Below, piece after piece: positions 2,081-57,834 of a stretch of DNA of 58,158 nt. A program made the translations under genes and the position numbers. The DNA lies in the IMG/VR virus record IMGVR_UViG_3300011116_000399, positions 1 to 58,158 of that record. The stretch is one strand, 5' to 3'. This DNA comes from a virus. Its lineage: Duplodnaviria > Caudoviricetes. The notes beneath the pieces were generated by a model that was not told the origin of the DNA, searched no databases, and was given only the letters and a program-made list of their open reading frames with translations. Each line of letters opens with the position of its first letter. Position 1 is the stretch's first letter.

Positions 2081-2093
2081 GGGGGAAAAATAA

Positions 2094-3071
2094 ATGCCAC
2101 AGCCAAACATTAACTCCGTCCATGTGGACGCAATTCTTACAAATATCTCGGTTGCATATTTACAAAACCAAGATAACTTTATCGCTGACAAGGTATTCCC
2201 AGTAATCCCTGTCGATAAGAAGAGCGATAAATACTTTACTTACACCAAGAACGATTGGTTCCGTGACGAGGCTCAACGCCGTGCGCCTGGAACTGAATCC
2301 GCAGGTGGCGGTTACAACCTATCAACAGGAACATATTCAGCAGATGTATGGGCTTTCCATAAAGATGTTGATGACCAAACTGTTGCAAACGCAGACGCTC
2401 CTCTAAACCCTCTTCGTGAGGCAACAGAGTTCGTTACTCGTCGTTTGATGCTTCGTCGTGAACTACAATGGGTATCCGATTTCTTCGGAACTGGTGTATG
2501 GGCTGACGATGTAACAGGTGTTGCTGGCGCCCCATCTTCAGGTGAGACAAAGCAATGGTCTGATTACACTTCTTCTGACCCAATTTCAGATATTGAAAAT
2601 GGTAAGGCAGAAATCCTAGGAAACACAGGAATGGAAGCAAACACTTTGGTTCTTGGATACGATGTATTCAAGGCACTAAAGAACCACCCTGACCTAGTAG
2701 ACCGCATCAAGTACACATCTTCACAAACAATCACAACCGACATGTTAGCCGCAATGTTTGACATTCCTCGAGTTATGGTTGCTAAGGCAGTCAAGGCAAC
2801 AAACAACGAAGGTGCATCAGAGGCTTATGCCTTTGCACACGGCAAGAAGGCTCTTCTATGCCATGTTGCTCCACAGCCTGGACTACTAACCCCTTCCGCT
2901 GGATACACATTCGCATGGACTGGTGTATCAGGTGGATTAGGTGCAACAATCGGAACTTCACAGTTCCGTATGGAATCCATTAAGTCAGACCGAGTAGAAG
3001 CAGAAATCGCTTTCGATAACAAAGTTATTTCTTCTGACCTTGGCTACTTTTGGAATACCATCGTCGCTTAA
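2094..3071 (+). CDS. Major capsid protein
   Basis: VDAILTNISVAY...FIADKVFP.IPV N-terminus typical of gpE-like capsid proteins; 325 aa; followed by a terminator. Confidence 0.9.
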   Translation: MPQPNINSVHVDAILTNISVAYLQNQDNFIADKVFPVIPVDKKSDKYFTYTKNDWFRDEAQRRAPGTESAGGGYNLSTGTYSADVWAFHKDVDDQTVANADAPLNPLREATEFVTRRLMLRRELQWVSDFFGTGVWADDVTGVAGAPSSGETKQWSDYTSSDPISDIENGKAEILGNTGMEANTLVLGYDVFKALKNHPDLVDRIKYTSSQTITTDMLAAMFDIPRVMVAKAVKATNNEGASEAYAFAHGKKALLCHVAPQPGLLTPSAGYTFAWTGVSGGLGATIGTSQFRMESIKSDRVEAEIAFDNKVISSDLGYFWNTIVA

Positions 3072-3081
3072 TTAGTTAAAC

Positions 3082-3126
3082 GAAGGGGGTGGGACTTTTG
3101 AAGGTCTCACTCCCTTCCTTTATTTA
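3082..3126 (+). terminator. Intrinsic terminator/stem-loop after the capsid gene
   Basis: GAAGGGGGTGGGACTT / AGGTCTCACTCCCTTC hairpin with T-rich tail. Confidence 0.75.
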
Positions 3127-3135
3127 GGAGAAAAA

Positions 3136-3480
3136 ATGGCATTAGTAAACAGACTTTCCAAGGGTGAAGTAGCAGTAGGCGCATTACAAGTTGGCGATAA
3201 CGACACCGTTTACGGTATCGAATTTGGAACTGTATCAATCGACCCTGCTTCAATCAACGCAACAACCCGTGGTGGAACAACCTTTACTTTGACTGGTGCG
3301 GCTACAACCGACATCATTATTGTGAATCCACCATCAGACTTAAATGATGACTTGATTTATTGTGGCGCCGCAGTTACAGCCGCAGATACAGTCACCGTTT
3401 ATCTTTACAACCCAACCGCAGGTTCAATTAACCAAGCGGCGGCAACATTCTCATATTGCTGGATTGACACAACCGCATAA
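3136..3480 (+). CDS. Head decoration/fibre-like structural protein
   Basis: T/A/V-rich beta protein, AGGAG SD, follows the capsid gene. Confidence 0.7.
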   Translation: MALVNRLSKGEVAVGALQVGDNDTVYGIEFGTVSIDPASINATTRGGTTFTLTGAATTDIIIVNPPSDLNDDLIYCGAAVTAADTVTVYLYNPTAGSINQAAATFSYCWIDTTA

Positions 3481-3481
3481 T

Positions 3482-3688
3482 ATGAAAGCACAAATTCTTA
3501 AATCAATGATTGTTGAAGGTCGCAAACTTGTGGCTGGAGATATTGTAGAAGTCAAGGGTTGGCGTCATGCTAAGGCTTTGGCTAATAATCGCTACATCAA
3601 ATTGATTGAAGAAGATGTAGTTGAAGAAAAAGTAGCAGAGGCTCCAAAGCCAAAGGCTACAAAAAAATCAAAAGAAGTCGCTGAATAG
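3482..3688 (+). CDS. Small head-associated protein (true start ATG 3482)
   Basis: MKAQILKSMIV...GDIVEV with a K/E-rich tail; abuts the previous stop. Confidence 0.7.
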   Translation: MKAQILKSMIVEGRKLVAGDIVEVKGWRHAKALANNRYIKLIEEDVVEEKVAEAPKPKATKKSKEVAE

Positions 3689-3691
3689 TGC

Positions 3692-3731
3692 AAAGGGCGA
3701 TTCGGTAAAATGAGTCGCCCTTTCTTTTCTT
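3692..3731 (+). terminator. Intrinsic terminator
   Basis: AAAGGGCGATTC / GAGTCGCCCTTT followed by CTTTTCTT. Confidence 0.8.
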
Positions 3732-3741
3732 AGGAGTTTAT

Positions 3742-4014
3742 ATGGCAGTATCACACCAAAGAGTTTCAGTAGGAACCACCGCTACACAATTAACATCCGA
3801 TGCGGATGGAAGAGATGGACAGACAATTAGTATTCAGGTTCCCTCAGCGGGAGCAACTGTCTATTTAGGTGGTGCAGGAGTAACAACAACAAGTTATGGT
3901 TATGAGTTGCTTGGGGGAACAAGTTTTTCTGTGGAGTTACAACAAGGAGAAAAAGTTTTTGGTGTTGTAGCCTCTAGCACACAAACTGTAAATGTATTCA
4001 GACAAGGCGCTTAA
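3742..4014 (+). CDS. Structural protein (spike/decoration-like)
   Basis: Beta-rich 90 aa; AGGAG SD. Confidence 0.7.
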   Translation: MAVSHQRVSVGTTATQLTSDADGRDGQTISIQVPSAGATVYLGGAGVTTTSYGYELLGGTSFSVELQQGEKVFGVVASSTQTVNVFRQGA

Positions 4015-4017
4015 ATT

Positions 4018-4563
4018 ATGGCGTTACCAGCATCATTATCAACTTGCACCGTTGTGGGTACTTATGTTGATTTAGTTGGTAACCCTGTTCGTGGTTCTAT
4101 CAACTTCACACCTCAAACAATCCTCAAAGAAGTTACAGCCAATGTCATTTTAATCCCAGTTGTAATTCAAAAAACTTTTGATTCAAGTGGTTCTTTTAGT
4201 GTTGTTTTACCTGTAACAAGCGATACAGATGTAATACCCCAACCTTTTATTTACACTATTGAAGAAAACTTTACTGGTGGTAGAACTATTGAGATTGCCT
4301 TGCCTCTATCAGTCGCAGGAACCACCCAAAACCTTGCAGATTTACTCCCTGCGCTATCTTCAGCGGACGCCGCTAGTTATGTGTCAGTAGACGCTTATCA
4401 GGCTCTATTAGCCCGTTACAACGATGCTGAGAGCATCCGTGTGCTTGTGGTAGACGCCGATGAATATGTAGATGATGCCGAGGGATATGCCTCAGATGCC
4501 TCAACAGCGGCGGCTTCTCTAAGTAACTATAATTCAAATCAGTTTATGTTAATGGGAGTCTAA
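4018..4563 (+). CDS. Fibre-anchoring structural protein (paralog of 4763..5440)
   Basis: MALP.SL.T..V.G.YVD..GNP..G N-terminus shared with 4763; ends FMLMGV. Confidence 0.75.
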   Translation: MALPASLSTCTVVGTYVDLVGNPVRGSINFTPQTILKEVTANVILIPVVIQKTFDSSGSFSVVLPVTSDTDVIPQPFIYTIEENFTGGRTIEIALPLSVAGTTQNLADLLPALSSADAASYVSVDAYQALLARYNDAESIRVLVVDADEYVDDAEGYASDASTAAASLSNYNSNQFMLMGV

Positions 4564-37829: not shown

Positions 37830-38753
37830 CTAGGGTTTTACAACCTCGGTAGGCACAGCCATGAGTCCGAGCGCAACCGTCGCCCATAGGTCAGGGGTTT
37901 CCGTATCGGGCTGGTATCCACCCGCTCCACCTAGAAGGATTGGATGCTCGGGGAACTGCTCTCTAATCAGGCGCATAGCCTTGAAATAGCCATCCTTGGT
38001 GTATTGCAAGGATGAGAGTGGGTCATTGGCTAGACCATCGGCTCCACACGCTACGAAAATCATCGTAGGCTGGAACTCGTTGCAAGCCTCGAGGAATCCC
38101 TCAGTAGCAGATAACAATTCTGCATCGCCTGACTTTGATGCAAGCGGGAAGTTATAGGCAAGATGTTTCCAATCGCTAATCAATCCCGTGCCTGGAAAAA
38201 TCCCATACTCATGAACTGAGTAAGTTAGAACATTTTTGTTCTTCTTTAACAGCATTTCAGTACCGTCACCATGGTGAGCATCGCAATCAAAGATAGCGAC
38301 CCTATGGTCATAATCTTGAGTTGCTCTAGTTGCGGCAATAGCAAAATCATTGAACACACAAAAACCGCTTGAGTAGTCACGCATTGCGTGATGCTTTGCA
38401 CCAGCAAAGTGAACAGCCAATTTAGTTTTGTAATCAATCAAAGCATCGAGAGCAGTCAAAGTACCGCCAGCAAACAACTTGGCTAAATCACCTAGGTCGT
38501 GGCGTTGTCCCATCCATTCACTTGATTCACCTCGGACAGTTACATCGAAAACATACTCCATGTCATGAACTAGATGCAGGTCATCAGTAGATGGCATCTC
38601 AGGTTCAATCTCCCAAACATTTAATCTACGGTCTTGCGCTCGCAACATAAGTTGATTACGAGCATGGAGAAACCTCCGCCCCTGAGTTGGGTGCGTCTTG
38701 TCAAAAACCCAATTCGCATACTCAGGCGAATGAACTAATACTGCATGTTCCAT
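37830..38753 (-). CDS. Zn-dependent deacetylase of the histone deacetylase/AcuC family
   Basis: HP....R, GAKHHA, SGFC.FND, D.DAHHGDG, GADG...DPL, GGY. Confidence 0.92.
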   Translation of the reverse strand: MEHAVLVHSPEYANWVFDKTHPTQGRRFLHARNQLMLRAQDRRLNVWEIEPEMPSTDDLHLVHDMEYVFDVTVRGESSEWMGQRHDLGDLAKLFAGGTLTALDALIDYKTKLAVHFAGAKHHAMRDYSSGFCVFNDFAIAATRATQDYDHRVAIFDCDAHHGDGTEMLLKKNKNVLTYSVHEYGIFPGTGLISDWKHLAYNFPLASKSGDAELLSATEGFLEACNEFQPTMIFVACGADGLANDPLSSLQYTKDGYFKAMRLIREQFPEHPILLGGAGGYQPDTETPDLWATVALGLMAVPTEVVKP

Positions 38754-38854
38754 AGTTTCTCCTCTCATAATATAAACCCCAGTTTACCTTATTTATTGAT
38801 TATTGACAAAACTTAATAAACCCATAAAATTCGTTTTGAGGTTAATCCCCTCGA

Positions 38855-47963: not shown

Positions 47964-48305
47964 ATGGGTTTACCTGAATTTGTTAATGATGCTCCATGTC
48001 GCTCTGCCGACCCATGGCTCTTTGACCAACATCAAATTGATTTAGCGCAACCCGCTCTTTCTTATTGTTCAAGATGTAAATTTTGGAAAGAGTGTGACTC
48101 TCTAGTTCAGCCTCAGACTAATCACTATGACGGAATTGTTGCTGGAAAAGTGTGGCGCAACGGAAGAATTTTGGCTAAGTTAGACGCCTATTCCCCGAAT
48201 CGTTTAGTAGTTGGAGAGGAATCTATTGAAGAAAATAATTATGCCGTGGAAATTCGAGGGAGCGAGTTGTTGGGGAATCGAGACGAATTACTTCTTCCCG
48301 AATGA
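47964..48305 (+). CDS. whiB: WhiB-family regulator (divergent)
   Basis: C...DP.LF...C..C.....C...GIVAG. Confidence 0.75.
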   Translation: MGLPEFVNDAPCRSADPWLFDQHQIDLAQPALSYCSRCKFWKECDSLVQPQTNHYDGIVAGKVWRNGRILAKLDAYSPNRLVVGEESIEENNYAVEIRGSELLGNRDELLLPE

Positions 48306-48507
48306 TGAAGGAGGAACAAGCACAGAGTATGGAATAGCAAAGAGAATTTGTAAGGGATGCTATTGGCAAGAGGAATGTCTTACCTATGCGTTACATTACA
48401 AAGTGTTAGGGATTTGGGGTGGAACAACACTAAATCAGCGAGACATAATGAGAAAAAAACTAAACATAATCGCCAAACCAATAACCAATGAAAGGCACAC
48501 AGCATGA
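48241..48507 (+). CDS. whiB: WhiB-family regulator
   Basis: C......FFP...AK.IC..C.....CL.YAL.....GIWGG. Confidence 0.92.
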   Translation: MPWKFEGASCWGIETNYFFPNDEGGTSTEYGIAKRICKGCYWQEECLTYALHYKVLGIWGGTTLNQRDIMRKKLNIIAKPITNERHTA

Positions 48508-49507: not shown

Positions 49508-50947
49508 ATGGCAGACAAACCAACCCCCGATTTAACTGAACTCGGAGCCACGGGTTTACGCCGTTCAGGTGGAACGGTCTATGAAGAATTCTTAGTAAAT
49601 CTACGAGGTATTCGTGGCGCAAAAGTTTATCGAGAGATGGCGGACAATGACCCAACCATCGGCTCAATGTTATTCGCAATCGAGAAAGTTATTACCCGTC
49701 TTGAATGGCGTGTAGACCCATACTCAGATAATTCTGAAGATGGAGAGATTACTAAAGAGGATAAAGAAGTAGCGGCGTTCGTAGAATCTTGCTTAAACGA
49801 TATGTCAGATTCTTGGGATTCAACACTATCCCAAATGTTGTCGATGTTAATTTTTGGTTATTCATATCATGAGATTGTTTACAAAGTTCGAGGCGGAGAT
49901 GTAAACGACCCACAGAAAAATTCTAAGTTTAATGATGGTCGTATTGGCTGGCGCAAAATGCCAATCCGTGCCCAAGAAACTTTATTTAGATGGATGATGG
50001 ATGAAGATGGTGGCATCCAAGGAATGATTCAAGTAGACCCATCAACGGGTGGAACTCACGCTATCCCGATTGAGAAATCTTTGTTATTCCGTACATCTTC
50101 ACAAAAGAATAACCCTGAAGGTCGTTCTATTCTTCGTAATGCTTACCGCCCTTGGTATTTCAAGCGCCGTATTGAAGAGATTGAAGCAATCGGTATTGAG
50201 CGTGACTTAGCAGGTTTGCCAGTTGCTTATGTACCACCTGAGTTCTTATCTTCAACAGCAACCGCAGAGCAAGCGGCAGTTCTAGCATCAATCCAAAATA
50301 TCGTTACCTCTATCAAGCGTAATGAGCAAGAAGGAATTGTTATGCCTTCTATGTACGATGATGCTGGACATAAAGTATTTGATTTAGTTTTATTATCATC
50401 AGGCGGAAGCCGTCAGTTCGACACAGACAAGATTATTCAAAGATATGACCAAAGAATTTCTATGTCTATCCTTTCAGACTTTATTCTTCTTGGCTCTGAC
50501 CGAGTTGGCTCATACGCTCTTGGAACCTCCAAGATGGATTTGTGGTCAATGGCAGTTGATTCAATCGCTAAAAATATCGCTGAGGTAATGAACCAATATG
50601 CGATTCCAAGATTACTAAAACTTAACGGAATGAATCCATCCCGTGCCCCTTATCTAACTTATGGTGAAGTAAGCCATGTTGATTTGAACGAAATCTCAGC
50701 CTTTGTTTCTAACTTGGCTCAGGTTGGCGTACTTGTTCCTGACCCTAAGTTGGAAGAGTATCTACGAGACTTGGCTGGATTACCACCTGCTGAACACGAT
50801 GGACAAAATTTTGGTATGCCTCCAATGCCTGAAGGTATGGGAATTCCTCCTGCACCTGAAGAAGCCGATGGCGCTGGTGAAGAAGAATTACCTCCACCTC
50901 CACCAACACCTGAAGGATTGAATCCACCCGCACCTGAAGTTGGTTAA
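49508..50947 (+). CDS. Portal protein (DUF935-like)
   Basis: Y.EM...D..I, NPEG.S.LR.AY.PW.FK, GSYALG; precedes MuF. Confidence 0.88.
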   Translation: MADKPTPDLTELGATGLRRSGGTVYEEFLVNLRGIRGAKVYREMADNDPTIGSMLFAIEKVITRLEWRVDPYSDNSEDGEITKEDKEVAAFVESCLNDMSDSWDSTLSQMLSMLIFGYSYHEIVYKVRGGDVNDPQKNSKFNDGRIGWRKMPIRAQETLFRWMMDEDGGIQGMIQVDPSTGGTHAIPIEKSLLFRTSSQKNNPEGRSILRNAYRPWYFKRRIEEIEAIGIERDLAGLPVAYVPPEFLSSTATAEQAAVLASIQNIVTSIKRNEQEGIVMPSMYDDAGHKVFDLVLLSSGGSRQFDTDKIIQRYDQRISMSILSDFILLGSDRVGSYALGTSKMDLWSMAVDSIAKNIAEVMNQYAIPRLLKLNGMNPSRAPYLTYGEVSHVDLNEISAFVSNLAQVGVLVPDPKLEEYLRDLAGLPPAEHDGQNFGMPPMPEGMGIPPAPEEADGAGEEELPPPPPTPEGLNPPAPEVG

Positions 50948-50949
50948 AG

Positions 50950-51957
50950 ATGCCGTTTCGTTTTGCGAAAGCCGAAAGACCTAGGCGCATACCTTTAACA
51001 CCTCAAGAGCAAGCCTTGGCTCGCACACTTTTTGAATCTATTCAGCGAGCCACAGATAGCATCTCTCTTCGACAGTTAGAGAGTTTGCTTCGTAATCTTG
51101 ACCCACAAACTTTAGAAAGATTGTTGAATTCAATAACAATCGCTAATCAAAAAAAGATTCAAGATTCTTTATTATCCTCGATTGATATTGGTGGTAATGA
51201 AGCAATCAAACAGATTAGAGAGATTGCACCTAAGTTAGCCCTACCTGCATTTATACCAACCAAGGTAAAGATAGAAAACCGTCCAGCAATGGCTAACATG
51301 GAGTTCACAAAACTTCCTGCGTGGGCACAATCTAAACAACCTAAAGTTGAATTCAAAATGTCATTCAATAAAACAAACCCAAACTCTTTAGCCTTTGCTC
51401 AACGCCGTGCTGGTGAACTTATTACATCTATTGACACATTAACCCGTGAATCAATTCGTCGAACAATTATTGACGCTTTTAATGAGCAGATAGATTACCG
51501 AGCCGCCGCTAGAAGAATTAAAAATGTTGTTGGGTTGCATCCACGATGGGCTGATGCAGTTACTAAATTTGAAAAAGATGAGTTTGCTAGATTACTTAAA
51601 CGAGGATTAAAAGAAGAAGTTGCTCGGGCTAAGGCTATGGATAGAGCCACTAGATATTCAGATTCTCTAAAGAGTAAAAGAGCAACGATGATTGCTAGAA
51701 CCGAAATTCAGATTGCTCAAAACGAGGGACGCTACGAAGGATGGAAGCAAGCGGCTGAAGAAGGTTATGTTGATGTTGAGTCACAGAAAATGTGGATTAT
51801 TGCTCAAGATGAACGCACCTGTGAAATTTGTACAGAATTAGATGGAGAAGTTGTTGGTTGGAATGAACCATTTTCTAGCGGTGATGAAACTCCAGGCAGG
51901 GTGCATCCTAATTGTCGTTGCACCATGGTAATCATTCCACCTGAGAGACGCTCATGA
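50950..51957 (+). CDS. MuF-like minor head protein
   Basis: RA.MIARTE, K.W....DERTC..C..LDG, HPNCRC. Confidence 0.92.
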   Translation: MPFRFAKAERPRRIPLTPQEQALARTLFESIQRATDSISLRQLESLLRNLDPQTLERLLNSITIANQKKIQDSLLSSIDIGGNEAIKQIREIAPKLALPAFIPTKVKIENRPAMANMEFTKLPAWAQSKQPKVEFKMSFNKTNPNSLAFAQRRAGELITSIDTLTRESIRRTIIDAFNEQIDYRAAARRIKNVVGLHPRWADAVTKFEKDEFARLLKRGLKEEVARAKAMDRATRYSDSLKSKRATMIARTEIQIAQNEGRYEGWKQAAEEGYVDVESQKMWIIAQDERTCEICTELDGEVVGWNEPFSSGDETPGRVHPNCRCTMVIIPPERRS

Positions 51958-53258
51958 GTATTACTCTCACATTCCCTGCTGGCTATAAGCCAGTTCTTAA
52001 GCACGGTGAACACGACCAAAGTTCTCATGGTAGTTGGGCGCACGGAAATTCTTCATTGCAAAAAGAGTATGCGGGATTGAGGGAAAGCGGAATTATAGAA
52101 AATGGAAAATACTACCCTGAGTACGATTCCGTAGCGACATCAGGCTTTGACCCCTCTAAATACTCAAGACCTTATGACCCAAGGGCGCTGACTAATGACG
52201 CCAAGGTTCATTCAGGTCCTCAGTTACGAGAAATAATTCAACAACTTATGGATAGGGAAGAATATACCCCTGAAATACAAAAAAAAGTTGAGGAAATTTC
52301 TAAAAGTTTTTTAACAGCCAATTTAGAAAATGTACAAACTTATTTTGAACAAGAAGCGGCAAAACAGAATTTAGGCGCAACAAATTCTAAGATTTATGTA
52401 GCGGGTCAGACTCAAAGATTATCTAACTACCTTGATGCTAATAATGCAGAAGTTAGATATGAAATTGCAAAAGCCATCTATCCCCTCCTTGGCGAATTAC
52501 GAGGTATGCAATTAGGTAATTATTTACAAAATCACGAAAGAGTAACAAAGGAAATTCAAGAGAATGTTTCCAAGGGATTTCCCGTCATAGCCGTTGATTC
52601 AAGAGATTTTGAAAAAGTTTTAACAGATGGTAGATTTAAGTCACAATTTGAGTCAAATAAAAGTGGGGGAATGTACGATTTAGGCAGGAGAAAAATCGAA
52701 GAAGTAGAGCAAGGAATTCCAGTAAACAGTAAATTGAAGGATAGACCAATTTACGGATACCTTGCAAGCCAACTATCTGTTGATGAAAATTCTGCAAGAG
52801 ATGTAAATAACGAAAAACCTACCAATACATTTACCGTGAACACAAGCCGAGTAGAACAATATGGCGACTTAAGGGTATTATTAAATGATGATGTAAAAGA
52901 AAGAACCACTTATACTTTAAGAGATTCTTTACAACAAGGCTCACTTCCACAACCCTTGTCCGAGAAAGTGACTAGAGATAATCTTGTAACTGCGGGTTTA
53001 CATGCGAGAAGTTCCTATGGAAGCGGCGGTAAACATACAAGCGAGTATGTTGAAGTACAAATCAAAAATGGTGTAAAAGTTACAGATATTAAACAAATTT
53101 ATATTGTTAGTCGAAGTAGTGATTCACAAGACAGGGAGCGTCGAGTTAATGAGGTTAAAAGCATGTTGAGTGCTTCAGGTAATACAAATTTAATTGATAA
53201 AGTTAAATTTTTACCCGCAGAAAAAGATGGTTTGTCAGATTATGGGTGGTCAGATTAA
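51954..53258 (+). CDS. Head-cargo effector 1: His tag plus DUF3626-like domain (possible ADP-ribosyltransferase fold)
   Basis: KHGEHDQSSHGSW; GRFKSQFE...SGG, RP.YGYL, QYG, RTT.T..DSL, YVEVQI. Confidence 0.75.
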   Translation: MSITLTFPAGYKPVLKHGEHDQSSHGSWAHGNSSLQKEYAGLRESGIIENGKYYPEYDSVATSGFDPSKYSRPYDPRALTNDAKVHSGPQLREIIQQLMDREEYTPEIQKKVEEISKSFLTANLENVQTYFEQEAAKQNLGATNSKIYVAGQTQRLSNYLDANNAEVRYEIAKAIYPLLGELRGMQLGNYLQNHERVTKEIQENVSKGFPVIAVDSRDFEKVLTDGRFKSQFESNKSGGMYDLGRRKIEEVEQGIPVNSKLKDRPIYGYLASQLSVDENSARDVNNEKPTNTFTVNTSRVEQYGDLRVLLNDDVKERTTYTLRDSLQQGSLPQPLSEKVTRDNLVTAGLHARSSYGSGGKHTSEYVEVQIKNGVKVTDIKQIYIVSRSSDSQDRERRVNEVKSMLSASGNTNLIDKVKFLPAEKDGLSDYGWSD

Positions 53259-55280
53259 ATGGACAATACGCTCAATATAGAAAAAGGCACCGTTTTATAC
53301 AAACGCTCAGATGGTAGTGAGATTGTATTTACAAAAATGGATGATGAAGATTTCTACGGTTTTGTTCGTAATCCCAAAGGTAAAGTTTTTGAAGAACAAT
53401 TATTAGGGTCGATACTTCGTCGAGGTGATTGGGAAGCCACCTATGAACCTGTGAAAAAGCACGGTGACCACGACCAATCAACCCATGGTGCTTGGGCGCA
53501 TGGCGTTCAAGTAGCCCCTGAAAAGATTCGAGAGGCTATCCAGCAAGTCAAGGACAATGAAGGTCTGACCATCGATATGAAAGATGGGGATATGCCCAAA
53601 ACGGGCTTTACCGTGGCTAAGGGTAAGAAATTCGCCGAAATCGTCAAGGCTGAGGATTTCTATGGGGAAAAAGGCGAGGAGATTCTGACTTCCTACCTAA
53701 AACAATACAGGTCAGAACTTAATAAAGAGAATAACTACCTCGGTTTATGGCATAATAAGAAAGATGGACAGGTTTATCTTGATGTTTCTGAAAACATCCA
53801 AGATGAAACGGAGGCTATAAACCGTGGTCGTGACAGAGACCAAATCTCAATATGGGATGTAGTAAATCTAAAAGAAATACCAACAGGAGGTACAGGTGCC
53901 ACAAAAACTAGAAGTAGTCAAACTTCCCGATTTGTCAAAGATGACAGACGAGCAGATAGAAGCATACGCCAAGGAGATTTGGGCGAAGTTAGCAAAAGGC
54001 AAGAACGAGTCAAAGTAATTTATTTTGATTACGGATTAAAACCCGTATTCAAACATGAAGGTCACGAAGACCAGTCAAGCCACGGTAACTGGGCTAGAGG
54101 ATTTACTGAGCAAGAACAATCTCGTATTGAGTCTATGGACAAAGTTGGTCCATCAAAAGATGATTTAAGTAGATTACTAAAAGGCAAAAAAGAATATACC
54201 GACGAAGATAAAACTCTTGTCGTAGAAAATGATTCTGATTTATATGCCGATGCAACTCAAGATATTGATTCTAGGGTTGAGGAAAGACTTGCTCGACTTC
54301 AAGCAGAGTTTCCAAATCATGTTTATACAGAACAAGAAAAAGCAACTATCTATGAGGACACACAAAGAGACATGGTTGCTGAATATGTAGATTCCAATAG
54401 TGAGACATTAGACGAATATCTCCAAGCAAGCGAGGGAGATTCTTTTGACCCTCAAGAATCAATCGATTCATTCCAAGATGTTTACGGTGTAAGCCATACT
54501 GGAACAACTAGAGATGGAAGAGAAGTAACCCTAAGTGCGAATGTTGGCGATGTTAGCGCCGACGGTTACAACATTTATATTCGTGGAGATGTTATTAGTG
54601 ACGATGGAAATTTGGCTGGAGAGTTTGAGCGACGCATTTTTCAAAAAGACGGAGTTTGGAATGTTGAACACGCAGTCTTGAGGTTAGATGATGAATACCA
54701 AGGTACGGGTTTTGGTAAAGAGTTTATTGAGCAATCAGAGGCTTGGTATACCGCTAAAGGTTTTGGTTTCATCGAAGTTGGAACAGCATGGGACGGCGCT
54801 CGCCATTGGGCTAGAGCGGGGTATGACTGGAAGCCTGACAGAGTTTCAGAAAACTTAGATAACATTTCTCAAAGAGTTGCTTCTATGGTCGATGAGGATA
54901 GTGGCTGGTTCAAAGAGGGTTCTCCCGAAAGAATTGAGTTTGATAATTTAATGTCAAGAGCAACAAACGAATACAGCCCTTATTTTGAAGATGAAAGCGG
55001 ATATAAGTATCCCGCTTTTAGTTCAGTCAAAGATTTGAAAGCAGATGACTTCCCACTACCTGCTCATTTTGCAAACATTGGATATTCAAAAGAAAAAGCA
55101 GAAGAAGTTGGTACTTGGGCTGGTAAAGAATTGATGTATGACTTGAGAATGAAATACACGAAGTCATTAACCGCTGAGGGACAAAAACTCTTACAAGGTC
55201 CTATTGACCTTGACGGGGATGGATTGGTTTATGATGGAACAGCCCGTGAAAAGCCAGCACCAAGTAGCGCAAAGAACTAA
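53259..55280 (+). CDS. Head-cargo polyprotein 2: small N-domain, tag plus unknown domain, tag plus GNAT acetyltransferase, DGDG tail
   Basis: Tags at 53457 and 54051; GNAT motif A YQGTGFG and G..HWARAGY. Confidence 0.8.
   Translation: MDNTLNIEKGTVLYKRSDGSEIVFTKMDDEDFYGFVRNPKGKVFEEQLLGSILRRGDWEATYEPVKKHGDHDQSTHGAWAHGVQVAPEKIREAIQQVKDNEGLTIDMKDGDMPKTGFTVAKGKKFAEIVKAEDFYGEKGEEILTSYLKQYRSELNKENNYLGLWHNKKDGQVYLDVSENIQDETEAINRGRDRDQISIWDVVNLKEIPTGGTGATKTRSSQTSRFVKDDRRADRSIRQGDLGEVSKRQERVKVIYFDYGLKPVFKHEGHEDQSSHGNWARGFTEQEQSRIESMDKVGPSKDDLSRLLKGKKEYTDEDKTLVVENDSDLYADATQDIDSRVEERLARLQAEFPNHVYTEQEKATIYEDTQRDMVAEYVDSNSETLDEYLQASEGDSFDPQESIDSFQDVYGVSHTGTTRDGREVTLSANVGDVSADGYNIYIRGDVISDDGNLAGEFERRIFQKDGVWNVEHAVLRLDDEYQGTGFGKEFIEQSEAWYTAKGFGFIEVGTAWDGARHWARAGYDWKPDRVSENLDNISQRVASMVDEDSGWFKEGSPERIEFDNLMSRATNEYSPYFEDESGYKYPAFSSVKDLKADDFPLPAHFANIGYSKEKAEEVGTWAGKELMYDLRMKYTKSLTAEGQKLLQGPIDLDGDGLVYDGTAREKPAPSSAKN
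53896..54018 (+). CDS. Nested overprinted 40-aa gene (candidate partner/immunity protein)
   Basis: AGGAGG-5 nt-GTG; MPQKLEVVKLPDLSKMTDEQIEAYAKEIWAKLAKGKNESK. Confidence 0.65.
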   Translation: MPQKLEVVKLPDLSKMTDEQIEAYAKEIWAKLAKGKNESK

Positions 55281-55299
55281 ACTGGGGTATAATTAGATT

Positions 55300-55461
55300 A
55301 TGAATAGACGAGAGACACAAAAGGCTATCCAAGAGGCTTATGCAAAATGGTCTGAGAAGGTGGAATTTACCTCTGAGACTGGAGCATCCGATAAAGACGA
55401 GTCTGAGATTATGGCTCAGATTTCAACCATACTTCAAGGAAATAAACCGCAGTCAGAATAG
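55300..55461 (+). CDS. Leaderless 53-aa protein (candidate GNAT partner)
   Basis: AACTGGGG-TATAAT-6 nt-ATG right after the GNAT gene. Confidence 0.7.
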   Translation: MNRRETQKAIQEAYAKWSEKVEFTSETGASDKDESEIMAQISTILQGNKPQSE

Positions 55462-55480
55462 TGTGCGCTATTCTTAGAAC

Positions 55481-57124
55481 ATGGCGGATATAGCACCGAA
55501 ACTTATTCATCTAAGCGCTGAGAAACTCAATGCGCTACATGAGCGTGTCCATAAGTCTGAGGCTACCCCTGCAACTATCGAGGTTCACCACACCATCCTC
55601 AATGAGATGGCTAGGCGCAAGATGGAACGCCCCCAAGATGATTGGGATAAGTACGAGATTTTAATTGATTCAATCGATAATGTAGACCTGACAAGTATTG
55701 GTGGATTATCAGCCGATACAGTTCTTGATGTTATTAAATCCACGGGCGACATCGTTGGAAATATAAAAACCTTTTTGACTATCCATGGCTATCAAATGCG
55801 TATTGAGCCAGTTGAAAAACGGATTCAACAAGAGGGTAGTAAATGGGTTGTTTACAACGAAGAGGGAACTCAGAAATTTGGAAGTTATGAAACAAAAGAA
55901 GAGGCTGAAGACCGTTTGCGCCAAATGCACATGTTCAAAGCCGATGATACTTACACGCCACCAAAGTCTGTAAGACAAGCGGCTCAAAGAGCAATCGAGT
56001 GGATTGGTGAAGGTTTTGCAGGTCAAGGATTTACTTCAACTGGTCGAGTTCGAGCAGGTCAATTAGCCCGAGGCGAAGCAGTATCTATTCAAACTCTAAA
56101 GCGTATGAAGTCTTTCTTCTCACGCCATGAAGTTGATAAAAAAGCAAAAGGTTTTAATCGTGGCGAAGAAGGTTTTCCTAGTGGTGGTCGAGTTGCATGG
56201 GACGCTTGGGGTGGCGATGCAGGATTCGCTTGGGCTGAAGCAATGGTTTCAAGATACGAAAATCAACAAGGGGTAAAAAAACATGAAGGACACGAAGACC
56301 AATCCGTCCACGGAAGTTGGGCTACTGGAGTTGGTAGTGGAAAAGATGAGAGTTCAAATGGTCGTCCCGCTTTATCACCTGACAAAAAGCCAAGTGCAGA
56401 ACGAAGCCCTGACGCAGTTAAGCAAGCCGAGAGATTACGAAGAGATGCTGAGGCAGTTGAGCCAGTAATTACAGGCTTGATGGAAGGTATTGCTAAAAAT
56501 ATCAATGCGGATTTCGCTGAGGTAGATGGCAAAAGTTCTTTAACGGAAAGACTTAAATCTACTGATTCTCTTGCTCGCAAGATTGATGCAGATGCAGAAA
56601 AAGACCATGGTGGCGATAGGGAGAAAGCGGCTAACGCAATTTCTGATGCAGTTCGCTATACATTAAATGTTGATGAATCTGATTACACAGACGGTGTAGA
56701 AAAAACTCTTGACACATTAAAAGAAACTGGTTGGAAAGTTGAATCAGTTAAAAACTTTTGGCAAGCAGGTGACCCTTATGATGGCACCAACATTAAGTTA
56801 AGCAAAGAAGGCGTCAAAGTAGAACTTCAATTACATACTCCAACATCTCATAAAATTAAAGAAGTTGGATTACATGATGATTACGAAAAATATCGTGTAT
56901 CAAAAGATGACAATGAACGCAGAAATCTTTGGGACAAAATGACCGAAACTGCTAAATCCATTCCACGCCCTGCCAATATGGGCAAACTTTTAAGTATTGG
57001 CACTCTAGTTGTGCAAACTTTTGAGACTGCTCAACAGGCTGGCTTGGTAAAATCAACTGGGGTTGATATAATATGGAGAATAACGAGAGAGGGTGTAGCC
57101 GTATGCGGTATTTTGCAAAACTAG
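55481..57124 (+). CDS. Head-cargo polyprotein 3 with C-terminal RelA/SpoT-like nucleotidyltransferase
   Basis: RLKS..SL.RK, I.D.VRY, Y.G.N, ELQ.HT, H..YE..R; tag at 56279; RA.QLA...AW..WGG domain. Confidence 0.85.
   Translation: MADIAPKLIHLSAEKLNALHERVHKSEATPATIEVHHTILNEMARRKMERPQDDWDKYEILIDSIDNVDLTSIGGLSADTVLDVIKSTGDIVGNIKTFLTIHGYQMRIEPVEKRIQQEGSKWVVYNEEGTQKFGSYETKEEAEDRLRQMHMFKADDTYTPPKSVRQAAQRAIEWIGEGFAGQGFTSTGRVRAGQLARGEAVSIQTLKRMKSFFSRHEVDKKAKGFNRGEEGFPSGGRVAWDAWGGDAGFAWAEAMVSRYENQQGVKKHEGHEDQSVHGSWATGVGSGKDESSNGRPALSPDKKPSAERSPDAVKQAERLRRDAEAVEPVITGLMEGIAKNINADFAEVDGKSSLTERLKSTDSLARKIDADAEKDHGGDREKAANAISDAVRYTLNVDESDYTDGVEKTLDTLKETGWKVESVKNFWQAGDPYDGTNIKLSKEGVKVELQLHTPTSHKIKEVGLHDDYEKYRVSKDDNERRNLWDKMTETAKSIPRPANMGKLLSIGTLVVQTFETAQQAGLVKSTGVDIIWRITREGVAVCGILQN
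57055..57105 (+). promoter_or_regulatory. Internal promoter/operator driving the protease gene
   Basis: AACTGGGGTT-GA-TATAAT inside the 3' end of the RelA-like gene; GAGAGG SD; ATG 57103. Confidence 0.7.
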
Positions 57125-57834
57125 GCGCAAACAACGAAGCGGTAAACATCTATCGTTTCGAAGTAGGCAATACCACTATTACCGAAGACAGATGGGATTC
57201 AAGAAAAAATTCTTGGGTAAATAATCCTGATGCAGATGTTGTTGGATATTTAACTCAAGGCGAAGGCGATTTTCAGGAACTTAGTGAAGATGTAGCCCGT
57301 CAAATTTTTCCTCAAGCATTTACCGAAGAGGCTACAAAGGCTTTAGGTAAATTTGATTTACAAAAAGCCGAGGGCGAAAAGCGTTACACACTTGGCGCTA
57401 TGTATATCCCTGATATGGAAGATGCTCATGGAGAATGGACAGATTCAGATGAATTACAAAGAGCAGTTTGGGATTATGTAAGAAGCAATGACCGCCGTAT
57501 TCGTTTACAACATAATAAAGATGTTGTTGCTGGTGAATGGGTAGAAGTCATGGCTTTTCCATATTCACTAACAGTTCCAATCAAAACTCCTGAGGGTCAA
57601 GAGATGCAACATACCTATCCGCCTAACACAGTTTTCCTAGGAGTTATTTGGGAGCCTTGGGCTTGGGAAATGGTAAGCGAAGGAAAGATTCGTGGATACT
57701 CTATTGGCGGAAAAGCCGAGAGATTATTTGTCGATATTGATGTTGAAAAAGGCGACCCAACAGTCTCCGATGTACATGTTGATACAATAATGTCTCCCTC
57801 AAAGAAAAAGCCAAAGAAGGAAGAAAATAAATGA
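57103..57834 (+). CDS. XkdF-like prohead serine protease with an extra N-terminal ~75-aa domain
   Basis: D.HGE...EL..A, QH....AG..VE, WE.V..G...GYSIGG. Confidence 0.85.
   Translation: MRYFAKLGANNEAVNIYRFEVGNTTITEDRWDSRKNSWVNNPDADVVGYLTQGEGDFQELSEDVARQIFPQAFTEEATKALGKFDLQKAEGEKRYTLGAMYIPDMEDAHGEWTDSDELQRAVWDYVRSNDRRIRLQHNKDVVAGEWVEVMAFPYSLTVPIKTPEGQEMQHTYPPNTVFLGVIWEPWAWEMVSEGKIRGYSIGGKAERLFVDIDVEKGDPTVSDVHVDTIMSPSKKKPKKEENK

Follow-up and report, generated by a model that had tools for sequence, protein, structure and literature searches.

The locus described here bears on what the toxin-like enzymes encoded among phage head genes are for. Both the purpose of MuF toxins and their carriage in the capsid are stated as open questions in two reports (PMC10083569; PMC12226406). 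The DNA analyzed, referred to as the window, is a stretch of 58,158 nucleotides from a viral record that is about 96% complete. The genome encodes a ParB_N protein, and an actinobacterial host is suggested because it also encodes WhiB. A scan of 69 other ORFs of the window and the 8 ORFs of the region detected neither an integrase nor an Aph1-type HD hydrolase. Metagenomic relatives are numerous, with 60 loci from a single metagenome scan, which do not represent independent samples.

Organization of the locus

The genes in question make up a cargo region among the head genes of an uncultured siphovirus, in the order portal, MuF, cargo (genes A, B, and C), and XkdF-type prohead protease.

49508-50947, portal (Pfam and PHROG)
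50950-51957, + strand, MuF, the minor head protein (PF04233, E 8e-17; phrog_3517, E 4.6e-60)
51954-53258, + strand, gene A, 434 aa
53259-55280, + strand, gene B, 673 aa
55300-55461, + strand, 53-aa ORF between genes B and C
55481-57124, + strand, gene C, 547 aa
57073-57834, + strand, protease ORF (Peptidase_S78_2/XkdF by Pfam and PHROG)

MuF is an ORF of its own with a stop codon, which overlaps the start of gene A in an ATGA. It closes as a separate ORF directly 5' of the first cargo gene in all 15 representative loci listed, and wherever a related locus extends far enough, the cargo genes are flanked by MuF on one side and the protease on the other. The three genes between MuF and the protease encode four enzyme-like modules, one or two per gene, and each module is accompanied by a tag and a small coding unit.

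51999..52046, + strand, tag copy 1, gene A residues 16-31, KHGEHDQSSHGSWAHG
52494..53255, + strand, module 1, SopF/DUF3626-like ADP-ribosyltransferase fold (PF12294 homologues; 7dn8_C profile match)
53259..53453, + strand, unit 1, first 65 residues of gene B, 5' of tag copy 2
53457..53504, + strand, tag copy 2, gene B residues 67-82, KHGDHDQSTHGAWAHG
53514..53890, + strand, module 2, alpha/beta domain of unknown function (phrog_17808, E 4.4e-9)
53885..54018, + strand, unit 2, nested 40-aa gene (AGGAGG at 53885-53890; GTG at 53896 to TAA at 54018)
54051..54101, + strand, tag copy 3, gene B residues 265-281, KHEGHEDQSSHGNWARG
54114..55277, + strand, module 3, helical region and GNAT acetyltransferase fold (core at about gene B residues 412-545)
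55288..55461, + strand, unit 3, 53-aa gene (TATAAT at 55288-55293; ATG at 55300)
55481..56266, + strand, untagged N-terminal part of gene C: helical region, DUF2188-like stretch, and phage-head-gene domain (phrog_2859)
56279..56329, + strand, tag copy 4, gene C residues 267-283, KHEGHEDQSVHGSWATG
56357..57121, + strand, module 4, Apk2tox-like RelA/SpoT-type pyrophosphokinase (tblastn to MuF toxin C-termini)
57103..57327, + strand, unit 4, IapK/Tis1-like immunity domain at the protease N terminus (family HMM, co-fold)
57328..57834, + strand, XkdF-type prohead protease domain (PF14550, E 2.6e-11)

The modules lie where a first-pass annotation of this DNA had placed them, and its assignments (DUF3626-like, unknown domain, GNAT, and RelA/SpoT-like) hold. 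The window proteins alone give matches that all fall short of the Pfam cut-offs (DUF3626, E 0.078; GNAT, E 0.05; RelA_SpoT, E 0.017), and each of these matches is strengthened by further evidence. The four small coding units that it described are likewise real and conserved.

A histidine-rich tag N-terminal to each module

The tag consists of about 16 residues with the consensus K-H-x-x-H-D-Q-S-x-H-G-x-W-A, one version of which reads K-H-G-E-H-D-Q-S-S-H-G-S-W-A. The same tag had been noted before each of the four modules, and this is borne out: the pattern DQ..HG.W matches four times in a six-frame translation of the whole window, where by our own arithmetic about 0.04 matches are expected by chance, and all four matches are in frame in the cargo genes. 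At the DNA level the copies vary at synonymous positions, so that conservation lies in the peptide. Copies 2 and 3 are situated within gene B segments 58-84 and 194-280, each with a pLDDT below 50, and the tag is predicted to be disordered.

Outside the window, the tag is present in more than 100 database proteins; in one set of 118 proteins, most carry it. Many database proteins share the leader of tag copy 1, followed by the tag at about position 17; elsewhere the tag is internal, with up to three copies per protein. The tagged proteins bear ADP-ribosyltransferase, GNAT, HAD, or unknown domains, and the domain is C-terminal to the tag wherever domain coordinates were checked. Variants in other lineages read KHLAGQHDQ and KHLPGQHDQ, and in two related loci (L057 and L061) the tag also occurs in the gene 3' of the protease. 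A search of the literature outside subscription journals found no published occurrence of the tag sequence. We infer that the tag directs the module into the prohead, marks a cut site for the prohead protease, or does both.

The first three modules

For module 1, four homologues (P0074, P0101, P0112, and P0116) carry PF12294, and two homologues are fusions of MuF with PF12294; the module from the window alone scores 12.4 bits against Pfam DUF3626, for which the cut-off is 27. Three candidate catalytic residues, R47, S145, and E187, do not vary among the 16 sequences of alignment A2. The A2 profile matches PDB entry 7dn8_C (E 1.8e-4) with Y-x-E-A-Q-I-H-G-G aligned, and the invariant Glu of A2 aligns with Y-I-E-A-H-I-H-G of 7dn8. 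SopF is described as containing DUF3626 (PMC6682159).

Module 2 (pLDDT 68-83) is known from phages only, and its nearest Atlas clusters are viral and without a Pfam family. Module 3 is modeled with a pLDDT of about 88, and Foldseek pairs it mostly with GNATs (probability 0.98-1.00, E 1e-3 to 1e-2). Its homologues are named GNAT by JGI, and its score against Pfam GNAT is 14.3 bits, under the gathering cut-off of 20.7.

A putative synthetase and an immunity-like domain on the prohead protease

Gene C starts with 262 untagged residues that were absent from the earlier description, and its residues 157-238 align with stretches of Roseobacter, Synechococcus, and Vibrio phages that carry protease, capsid, or portal annotations. 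Module 4 follows tag copy 4 and is predicted from its sequence to be a (p)ppApp synthetase. In tblastn it matches the C-termini of MuF toxins, including characterized Apk2 toxin domains, with E values of 1e-20 to 8e-23 and 33-39% identity over about 180-200 residues; these toxins come from prophages of Streptococcus, Pasteurella, Mannheimia, Aggregatibacter, and Ralstonia. The module keeps RLKSTDSLARKI, DAVRYT, VELQLHT, and YEKYR, the same as in Apk2 of phage IPP32, and the core residues of R-x-K-x-x-x-S-x-x-x-K, D-x-x-R-Y, E-x-Q-x-H-T, and Y-E-K-Y-R are invariant or nearly so in the 17 sequences of alignment A6. We take these to be the RelA/SpoT synthetase motifs. Against Pfam RelA_SpoT, module 4 reaches 14.2-15.9 bits (cut-off 27), and IPP32 Apk2 is likewise without a RelA_SpoT match.

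The XkdF-type protease domain is 72-100% identical across relatives and is preceded by unit 4, a stretch of 75 residues whose coding sequence shares 22 nt with the 3' end of gene C. A start of the protease at the ATG at 57103 (MRYF...) is more likely because the stand-alone homologues begin there. The unit 4 family has 94 library matches, mostly stand-alone proteins of 66-90 aa (about 72 aa). When its HMM was run against 282 ORFs, the four known iapK ORFs took the top four places (E 1.3e-4, 4.2e-4, 0.029, and 0.98), and hhalign of the family with IapK gave 82.9% and E 9e-6 over 41 columns. Conversely, the IapK HMM ranks the protease ORF first of the 572 ORFs of the window (E 0.024). These comparisons point, with moderate confidence, to a relationship of unit 4 with the IapK/Tis1 immunity proteins. 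The unit is modeled with a pLDDT of 95. VIA-align places the model on Tis1 (6ox6_B) with Z 3.3 and an rmsd of 3.6 Å over 61 residues, rank 9 of 48161, a weak match that is tied with unrelated chains, and Foldseek found nothing for this fold in the PDB.

The co-folding of a module with its downstream unit against control pairs, which the first-pass annotation had proposed, separated the cognate pair clearly in the case of module 4. Its co-fold with unit 4 reached a median of 0.89, and the best of three controls reached 0.00, on a measure whose mark is attained by 116 of 157 solved complexes and by 2 of 215 mismatched pairs. The partner pLDDT is at least 89, and contacts agree between runs to at least 96%. 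Because a Tas1-Tis1-like complex has already been solved, the pass may stem from the memory of the model. The predicted interface includes module 4 residues 97, 141, 143, 145, 147, 158, 173, 176, 179, and 180, all of which are invariant or nearly invariant in A6, and unit 4 is thus predicted to sit across the conserved active-site motifs of the synthetase.

That module 4 and unit 4 are a toxin and its antidote is well supported by the IapK/Tis1 homology, the co-fold, and the joint replacement of both in L057 described below. The toxin and antidote logic earlier proposed for the whole array therefore stands for this pair, and the other three units are seen only to travel with their modules.

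Companions of the other modules

Unit 1 occurs only alongside module 1, in two lineages (L013/L068 and L032/34/35/69-72), and various B-mid types come after it in relatives. Its fold is predicted with low confidence. A search found no stand-alone homologue, and comparison with the small ORF after the DUF3626 gene of phage DSL-LC01 gave no significant match (rank 2 of 125, E 0.23).

Unit 2 (ORF 53896-54018) lies inside gene B in frame +1 relative to it. All 29 distinct sequences keep the AGGAGG, a start codon (GTG or ATG), the peptide LPDxSxMTDEQIDxYAKxIWxKL, and the stop, and tblastn detected the unit in 40 loci. The gene B frame across it is open, Arg-rich, and less conserved. A nested gene with its own ribosome-binding site in the linker of a polyprotein presents a clean case of dual coding. 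A tail like unit 2 is also attached to an IapK-like protein (P0157).

Unit 3 has no Shine-Dalgarno sequence, and a TATAAT ends 6 nt 5' of its ATG. There are 28 distinct versions of the unit, with diverged forms in L021 and L060. Most of the 30 distinct unit 3 sequences listed show GGTATAAT followed by 6 nt and ATG; in three of those listed, the ATG is displaced 3' by a few bases, and L057 reads GGTAGGAT. Promoters of their own had been suggested for the units, and this found no support, since promoter-like sites are not enriched (15 versus 19.4 ± 3.9 in shuffles). The identity of unit 3 tracks that of module 3 (rho 0.83) and not that of the N-terminal part of gene C (rho 0.40).

Units 1-3 are conserved companions that travel with the module upstream of each. 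Most likely they, like unit 4, serve as cognate inhibitors or as loading adaptors.

Exchange of cassettes among relatives

What is exchanged is the whole stretch from one tag to the next. A joint swap of module and partner had been proposed as a test, and such a swap is seen in L057, where a Zeta toxin (PF06414, E 7e-22) is the last module instead of the synthetase and the N terminus of the protease is replaced as well. Its roughly 85 residues do not align with those of the window at E <= 100, and the protease domains are 74% identical. This N-terminal domain has no match in Pfam or among PDB sequences, and to call it epsilon-like is a guess. Zeta toxins have bacterial targets. Two other module and leader pairs stay together though their downstream domain changes; a module X and its 45-aa leader are kept together (43% and 56% identity) while a B-mid downstream gives way to an ADP-ribosyltransferase. 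The earlier proposal that a partner can be joined to the 5' end of the following gene also stands, for an IapK-like domain precedes tagged ADP-ribosyltransferase proteins elsewhere.

The slot after MuF is the most variable among relatives and often holds PF03496. The leaders that come next after PF03496 modules have only about 20 residues and are therefore too short for a folded partner, which speaks against one antidote per module as a general rule. Recombination that simply occurs at the tags would likewise cause a companion to be inherited together with the module upstream of it.

Proposed mechanism and alternative explanations

The explanation that accounts best for the whole, and one that we consider reasonably probable, is that tagged toxin modules are prohead cargo with companions, and that an IapK-like antidote is carried on the protease. 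The tag would bring each separate module into the prohead, be cut by the prohead protease, or both. The antidote on the protease would silence the synthetase in the producing cell and may help to load it into the prohead. Self-digestion of the protease after head maturation would then destroy the antidote, and the armed enzyme would be injected along with the DNA. Delivery by the virion and cleavage at the tag are both inferred steps. A protease-fused antidote would tie the control of a toxin to capsid maturation, and it suggests how a packaged toxin could spare the producing cell and yet act in the next.

The companions may also be read differently. Units other than the IapK-like domain would then not be antidotes: unit 1 would act as a spacer or as a pro-peptide cleaved off at the tag, units 2 and 3 would encode small proteins for assembly, scaffold binding, or regulation, and their linkage to modules would result from breakpoints at the tags. 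The marking of both ends of exchanged cassettes by the tag agrees with this, as do the low fold confidence of unit 1 and its lack of stand-alone relatives, the absence of a sizeable companion for PF03496 modules, and the unit 2-like tail on P0157, which suggests a portable docking peptide. However, unit 3 follows the GNAT module far more closely than it follows the equally near N-terminal part of gene C, module X and its leader persist together across a change of the downstream domain, and the sole companion that could be tested, unit 4, behaves as an inhibitor in the predicted complex. We regard this reading as rather unlikely, and as the one that survives best among the alternatives.

A further possibility, to which we give less credence, is that the enzymes of the array are injected to take over the host or to counter its defences, in the manner of T4 Alt and the T4 internal proteins, and need no antidotes; the tag would serve capsid targeting and cleavage only, and the IapK-like domain would mainly be a loading adaptor. 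The tag lies N-terminal to each enzyme, as does the targeting peptide of T4 Alt, and is predicted to be disordered. Against this, Apk2tox domains are reported to be toxic in E. coli and to be neutralized by IapK (PMC12226406), and the predicted interface lies over the catalytic motifs and therefore fits inhibition. This explanation overlaps the preferred one and differs mainly in emphasis.

A more elaborate scheme, which we hold to be doubtful, is a non-covalent daisy chain with a timer. Each toxin would be held by an inhibitor that fronts the next protein or is hidden as an overlapping gene in a linker, with the last inhibitor on the protease. Cuts at the tags and self-digestion of the protease would arm all toxins at once in the closed, substrate-free capsid before injection, and cassettes from tag to tag would swap toxin and antidote jointly.

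It is improbable that the modules are made late and act unpackaged in the infected cell or after lysis, with the tag serving metal binding, regulation, or export: a "Trojan horse" role against eukaryotic grazers has been proposed for VIP2-like ADP-ribosyltransferases of freshwater phages, some predicted to infect Actinobacteria (PMC6802176), and PF03496 is frequent in the variable slot of relatives, but the position of the cargo genes between MuF and the protease in all related loci that extend that far, the covalent fusion of the same toxin types to MuF elsewhere, the action on bacterial targets of Zeta toxins and, as given in PMC12226406, of (p)ppApp synthetases, and an antidote fused to the protease, which makes little sense unless head assembly is involved, all argue against it. 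If the modules are tagged prohead cargo, as we prefer, the tag offers a handle to find packaged cargo in uncultured phages and to load foreign proteins into capsids.

Comparison with known systems

T4 Alt is an ADP-ribosyltransferase that enters the prohead by means of an N-terminal targeting peptide. The prohead protease removes this peptide, and Alt is injected together with the DNA. Unlike the peptides of Alt and the T4 internal proteins, the tag described here, which is unrelated to them in sequence, is His-rich and also occurs internally, with up to three copies per protein. Zeta toxin and epsilon antitoxin are known pairs, and L057 resembles them in having Zeta_toxin at the last cargo position together with a different protease N terminus. 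Tas1, a type VI effector, is a (p)ppApp synthetase toxin blocked by Tis1, an immunity protein of 76 residues. The likeness to Tas1-Tis1 (PDB code 6OX6) lies in a small immunity protein directed against a (p)ppApp synthetase, with only a weak match of unit 4 to Tis1; delivery is by a secretion system there, whereas a phage head is proposed here.

The Apk2-IapK-Aph1 system is found in Streptococcus, Pasteurella, and Mannheimia prophages (PMC12226406; PMC10083569). In this system iapK comes after apk2, and the IapK protein blocks the acceptor site of the toxin (PMC12226406). Apart from this report, a search of the literature outside subscription journals gave no paper on IapK or Apk2 that could be recognized as relevant from the title or the start of the abstract among the 10 matches listed of 228. 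Module 4 resembles its counterparts there in identity and retained motifs, and the IapK-like domain comes directly after it and is predicted to lie over the active site. In contrast, the domain here is the N terminus of the protease and not a free protein of 70 aa, the ORFs scanned include no gene for an Aph1 hydrolase, and the synthetase stands behind a head-associated region of 262 aa and the tag instead of behind MuF.

A further framework is given by the polymorphic MuF toxins that temperate phages carry (Jamet et al. 2017, PMC5576092). As in those, RelA-like and ADP-ribosyltransferase domains are encoded in the head module beside the portal gene and MuF, and small genes lie directly 3'; modules 1 and 4 also have homologues fused to MuF. 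In many prophages MuF and a C-terminal toxin domain form a single protein. In the present array, however, MuF is separate and the modules are chained over three genes, and the His-rich tag is present, of which the cultured-phage MuF toxins examined have none. The known MuF polymorphic toxins are tied to temperate phages; in the present record a ParB_N protein is encoded, and no integrase was detected among the ORFs scanned. We conclude that the array is a variant of the MuF-associated phage toxins.

Architecture of the cargo region

The record, 58,158 bases long and estimated to be 96% complete, encodes a tail tube, a tail terminator, a tape-measure-type protein and a CHAP lysin, as well as Mu Gam, ERF, a C5 methylase, an SSB and a WhiB protein. 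A scan of 69 other ORFs of the window and the 8 ORFs of the cargo region found no integrase. The presence of WhiB together with a G+C content of 38–46% suggests a low-GC actinobacterial host. WhiB-like Cys patterns occur in two overlapping ORFs (47964–48305 and 48211–48507), and the second alone passes Pfam (E 8.2e-12). Neither a megablast of the cargo region nor a tblastn search with gene B matched cultured phages, and a literature search returned no paper that links ADP-ribosylation and whiB in phages of freshwater actinobacteria.

Downstream of the portal gene come MuF, genes A and B, a 53-aa ORF, gene C and an XkdF-type prohead protease, in that order. Cargo genes A, B and C contain four modules:

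Module 1, gene A residues ~181–434: similar to DUF3626 homologues, with a profile match in the PDB
Module 2, gene B residues 85–210: small alpha/beta domain, found only in phages, with no assigned function
Module 3, gene B residues 285–646: good structure model, with mostly GNATs among its Foldseek matches
Module 4, gene C residues ~293–547: similar to the C-terminal toxin domains of MuF proteins

The same His-rich peptide, of the type K-H-x-x-H-D-Q-S-x-H-G-x-W-A and here called the tag, precedes each module, as the first-pass annotation had stated. Six-frame translation of the window yields four copies and none elsewhere, all in frame in A, B (two copies) and C. The further claim that modules 1, 3 and 4 are DUF3626-like, GNAT and RelA/SpoT-like is upheld by profile, Foldseek and tblastn matches, respectively.

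A 16-sequence profile of module 1 matched the PDB chain 7dn8_C (E 1.8e-4) with an invariant Y-x-E-A-Q-I-H-G-G aligned, and we take 7dn8 to be the structure of SopF. SopF is an ADP-ribosyltransferase. Homologues of module 1 carry PF12294 (DUF3626), and two of them are fusions of MuF with DUF3626. This domain is placed in Salmonella SopF in the available text of one report (PMC6682159).

The N-terminal part of gene C, 262 residues long, is untagged; in unrelated phages, residues 157–238 recur as part of a protease, capsid or portal gene. The minus strand at 37830–38768 encodes a member of the histone deacetylase family (PF00850, E 9.4e-58), in the same phage that has a GNAT cargo module. That it might undo acetylation by the GNAT cargo, as Aph1 reverses the product of Apk2, is pure speculation.

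An Apk2-like module and an IapK-like protease N terminus

By tblastn, module 4 matches the toxin domains at the C termini of MuF proteins from prophages of Streptococcus, Pasteurella, Mannheimia, Aggregatibacter and Ralstonia, with E-values of 1e-20 to 8e-23. Two reports describe the matched domains as Apk2 adenosine 3'-pyrophosphokinases, enzymes toxic to E. coli that produce (p)ppApp (PMC12226406; PMC10083569). The synthetase motifs are retained in module 4, and the core residues are invariant or nearly so in 17 relatives. In that system iapK comes after apk2, and its product of ~70 residues occludes the acceptor site of the toxin (PMC12226406).

The protease probably starts 22 nt upstream of the end of gene C, with MRYFAKLG... 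A profile of its residues 1–75 retrieved 94 proteins at E <= 1e-3 from a library of 1.84 billion, and 64 of these are stand-alone proteins of 60–100 residues that match the full profile. The domain is also found fused to an XkdF protease (database proteins P0146 and P0197), to the tag and a PF03496 ADP-ribosyltransferase (P0176, P0185 and P0193), and to the tag and another domain (P0180). Viral and metagenome contigs searched for the genomic context of P0193 gave tag-level matches only, and viral scans found nothing for the stand-alone P0133 and P0148. An uncharacterised Cys-rich domain of ~120 residues (KCFKWWCxxC ... PNWV), for which Pfam has no family, is the partner in P0132, P0137, P0139, P0142, P0144, P0145 and P0130, the last with the two domains in reversed order.

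An HMM built from the family of the protease N terminus placed the four annotated iapK ORFs at ranks 1–4 of 282 six-frame ORFs from five Apk2 phage loci (E 1.3e-4, 4.2e-4, 0.029 and 0.98). Comparison of this family with IapK by hhalign gave 82.9% probability over 41 columns, and in the reverse search the IapK HMM gave the top rank among 572 window ORFs to the protease ORF (E 0.024). The IapK comparison drew on the loci of four phages instead of a word-indexed search with Pasteurella IapK, which returned close relatives only. Pfam has no family for IapK proteins or the protease N-terminal domain, and a small profile of this domain (A1) gave nothing meaningful against PDB sequences. The domain was modelled with a pLDDT of 95, and Foldseek found nothing for the model in the PDB at E <= 0.001. 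With an exhaustive aligner, Tis1 (6ox6_B, 76 residues) came ninth of 48,161 chains, a weak match tied with unrelated rows (Z 3.3, rmsd 3.6 Å, 61 residues).

When module 4 was co-folded with the protease N terminus, the median score was 0.89, against 0.00 for the best of three controls. The partner had a pLDDT of 89 or higher, and runs shared 96% or more of their contacts. The co-fold mark was attained by 116 of 157 solved complexes and by 2 of 215 mismatched pairs, counts that hold only roughly because our own alignments were used for the co-fold. The predicted interface takes in the conserved module 4 residues 97, 141, 143, 145, 147, 158, 173, 176, 179 and 180. Because the Tas1-Tis1 complex is solved, the pass may mirror likeness to that pair and not binding by this copy.

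Immediately upstream of the first ATG of the protease ORF is a promoter-like site (TTGGTA-17-TATAAT with TG, 57044–57072), and GAGGG lies 9 nt upstream of the ATG at 57103. Taken as a class, promoter-like sites show no enrichment across the cargo region.

Natural variation of the last pair

In the related locus L057, the Apk2-like module is replaced. The counterpart of gene C (2087–4456) encodes a tag, a stretch that by eye looks ParB/Srx-like and has a DGHH motif, another tag and a Zeta toxin domain (PF06414, E 7e-22). The first ~85 residues of the L057 protease do not align with those of the window at E <= 100 and have no PDB sequence match; the protease domains are 74% identical. Both the last module and the protease N terminus have thus changed, in agreement with the expectation that modules and partners swap together. 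The proposed toxin-antidote pairing is accordingly supported for the last pair by the HMM and hhalign relationship to IapK, the co-fold score over its controls and this exchange.

In L061, L059 and L060, the synthetase falls to 51–55% identity, and the IapK-like domain persists in diverged form. Across 52 distinct identity profiles, which come from mutually related loci and are not independent points, the protease N terminus correlates somewhat better with module 4 (Spearman 0.71) than with the protease domain of its own gene (0.53).

The other companions and the variable slot

The other three companions, the small units that follow modules 1 to 3, are residues 1–65 of gene B, a 40-aa ORF nested in B and the 53-aa gene. 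The nested ORF is the clearest of them. All 29 distinct sequences have AGGAGG 5–8 nt upstream of a GTG or ATG in frame +1, then a well-conserved peptide and a stop. By our own reading of these sequences, the synonymous bases of AGGAGG are invariant and the next synonymous base varies. The nested frame is the more conserved, at 53–87% identity against 45–81% for the B frame; the latter is open across the nested ORF in all of them, and was not detected over this stretch in L060. By tblastn and our own count, the peptide is present in 40 loci (39 with this type of module 2 and also L037, truncated at its end) and in 0 of 3 loci with the other type. In the 110-residue protein P0157, an IapK-like domain is followed by a C-terminal tail (LPTIAEMSDDQIDQLAKDVWNRL) resembling the nested peptide, which hints at a portable docking role for the peptide.

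No relative whose sequence extends to this point lacks the 53-aa gene; L021 and L060 carry diverged forms of it. The element GGTATAAT lies 6 nt upstream of the ATG of this gene in most of the listed distinct sequences; L057 instead reads GGTAGGAT, and in three the ATG is a few bases further on. The identity of this gene tracks module 3 (rho 0.83) rather than the N-terminal part of gene C (rho 0.40). Homology to the nested gene was rejected (hhalign 0.6%). The spacer before gene C (55462–55480; CCGCTAYYCTTAGAAC plus ATG), conserved in most relatives with small variations at its end, has no Shine-Dalgarno sequence, and its geometry resembles the element preceding the 53-aa gene.

The B N terminus was found only with module 1, in two lineages and with either type of module 2 downstream; no stand-alone relatives were found. 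A kinship with the small ORF after the DUF3626 gene of phage DSL-LC01 was rejected (only 13 residues were alike; rank 2 of 125, E 0.23). L022 has a 270-residue module, module X, that shares 43% identity with the last module of an 830-residue L060 protein. The 45-residue leaders of the genes that follow are 56% identical, and the domain after the next tag differs, being module 2 in L022 and an ADP-ribosyltransferase in L060.

Taken together, these comparisons show that each companion belongs with the module upstream of it. Such linkage is expected of a cognate partner, and also of recombination at the tags. The idea that a small unit follows every module stands for the four units of the window, which are conserved. 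Counting against a general rule, PF03496 modules in relatives are followed by leaders of only ~20 residues.

Relatives differ in the distance between MuF and module 2, from about 100 to 4,300 nt. The occupants of this variable slot are PF03496 ADP-ribosyltransferases, small GNATs, HAD phosphatases, module X or module 1; modules 2 to 4, with their companions, hardly change.

The tag

The four DNA copies of the tag use different synonymous codons, and so what is conserved is the peptide rather than a DNA repeat. The two tags of B fall in segments of the AlphaFold model with pLDDT below 50 (58–84 and 194–280). A search with gene A returned 118 proteins, and in most of them the tag is the sole similarity to A, located at about residue 17 or internally, with up to three copies per protein. 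Where the source lists Pfam families for tagged proteins, these are PF03496 ADP-ribosyltransferases and GNATs. Other lineages have the variant KHLAGQHDQxxHG, and the variant KHLPGQHDQEAHG occurs in a protein whose C-terminal part resembles, by eye, the GNAT region of B. Not every module comes after its tag, since in L043 (1592–2896) and L053 (4186–7149) the first cargo gene after MuF has the usual leader, then a HAD phosphatase domain, and only then the first tag.

A tblastn search of cultured phages with the 36-residue leader and tag gave no match at E <= 1. Microbacterium phage Alakazam and Gordonia phage Mareelih have no tag in their MuF or ADP-ribosyltransferase proteins, nor do Lactococcus phage P1045 and phage DSL-LC01 in their DUF3626 proteins. 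A literature search found the tag sequence in no paper.

In the divergent loci L057 (5135–5941) and L061 (1484–2152), the gene after the protease bears one or two tag copies followed by an acidic tail, and that of L061 has a clear DUF2945/TUDOR-like motif in addition. No tag is seen in the portion of the corresponding window gene before the record ends. The post-protease gene of L057 and L061 is presumed to be scaffold-like from its position alone, and its tag is a hint of a loading and/or cleavage signal.

Proposed mechanism and relation to known systems

Beyond the observed anatomy, the module families at their respective levels of match, the family membership of the protease N terminus, the predicted interface and the L057 exchange, a mechanism can be proposed. 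The cargo would be packaged into the head, because it lies between MuF and the protease and has MuF-fused homologues. The tag could serve as the signal for loading, cleavage or both, and self-destruction of the protease would then release active toxin. A different target has been proposed for the ADP-ribosyltransferases of freshwater phages, namely eukaryotic grazers, in the available text of one report (PMC6802176).

The array is proposed to work like the MuF toxins. Since a MuF-toxin fusion is absent, it is outside the MuF toxin family as defined, and it differs in how the cargo is attached and in where the antidote resides. In the Apk2-IapK system iapK is a separate small ORF, whereas here the IapK-like domain is the N terminus of the prohead protease.
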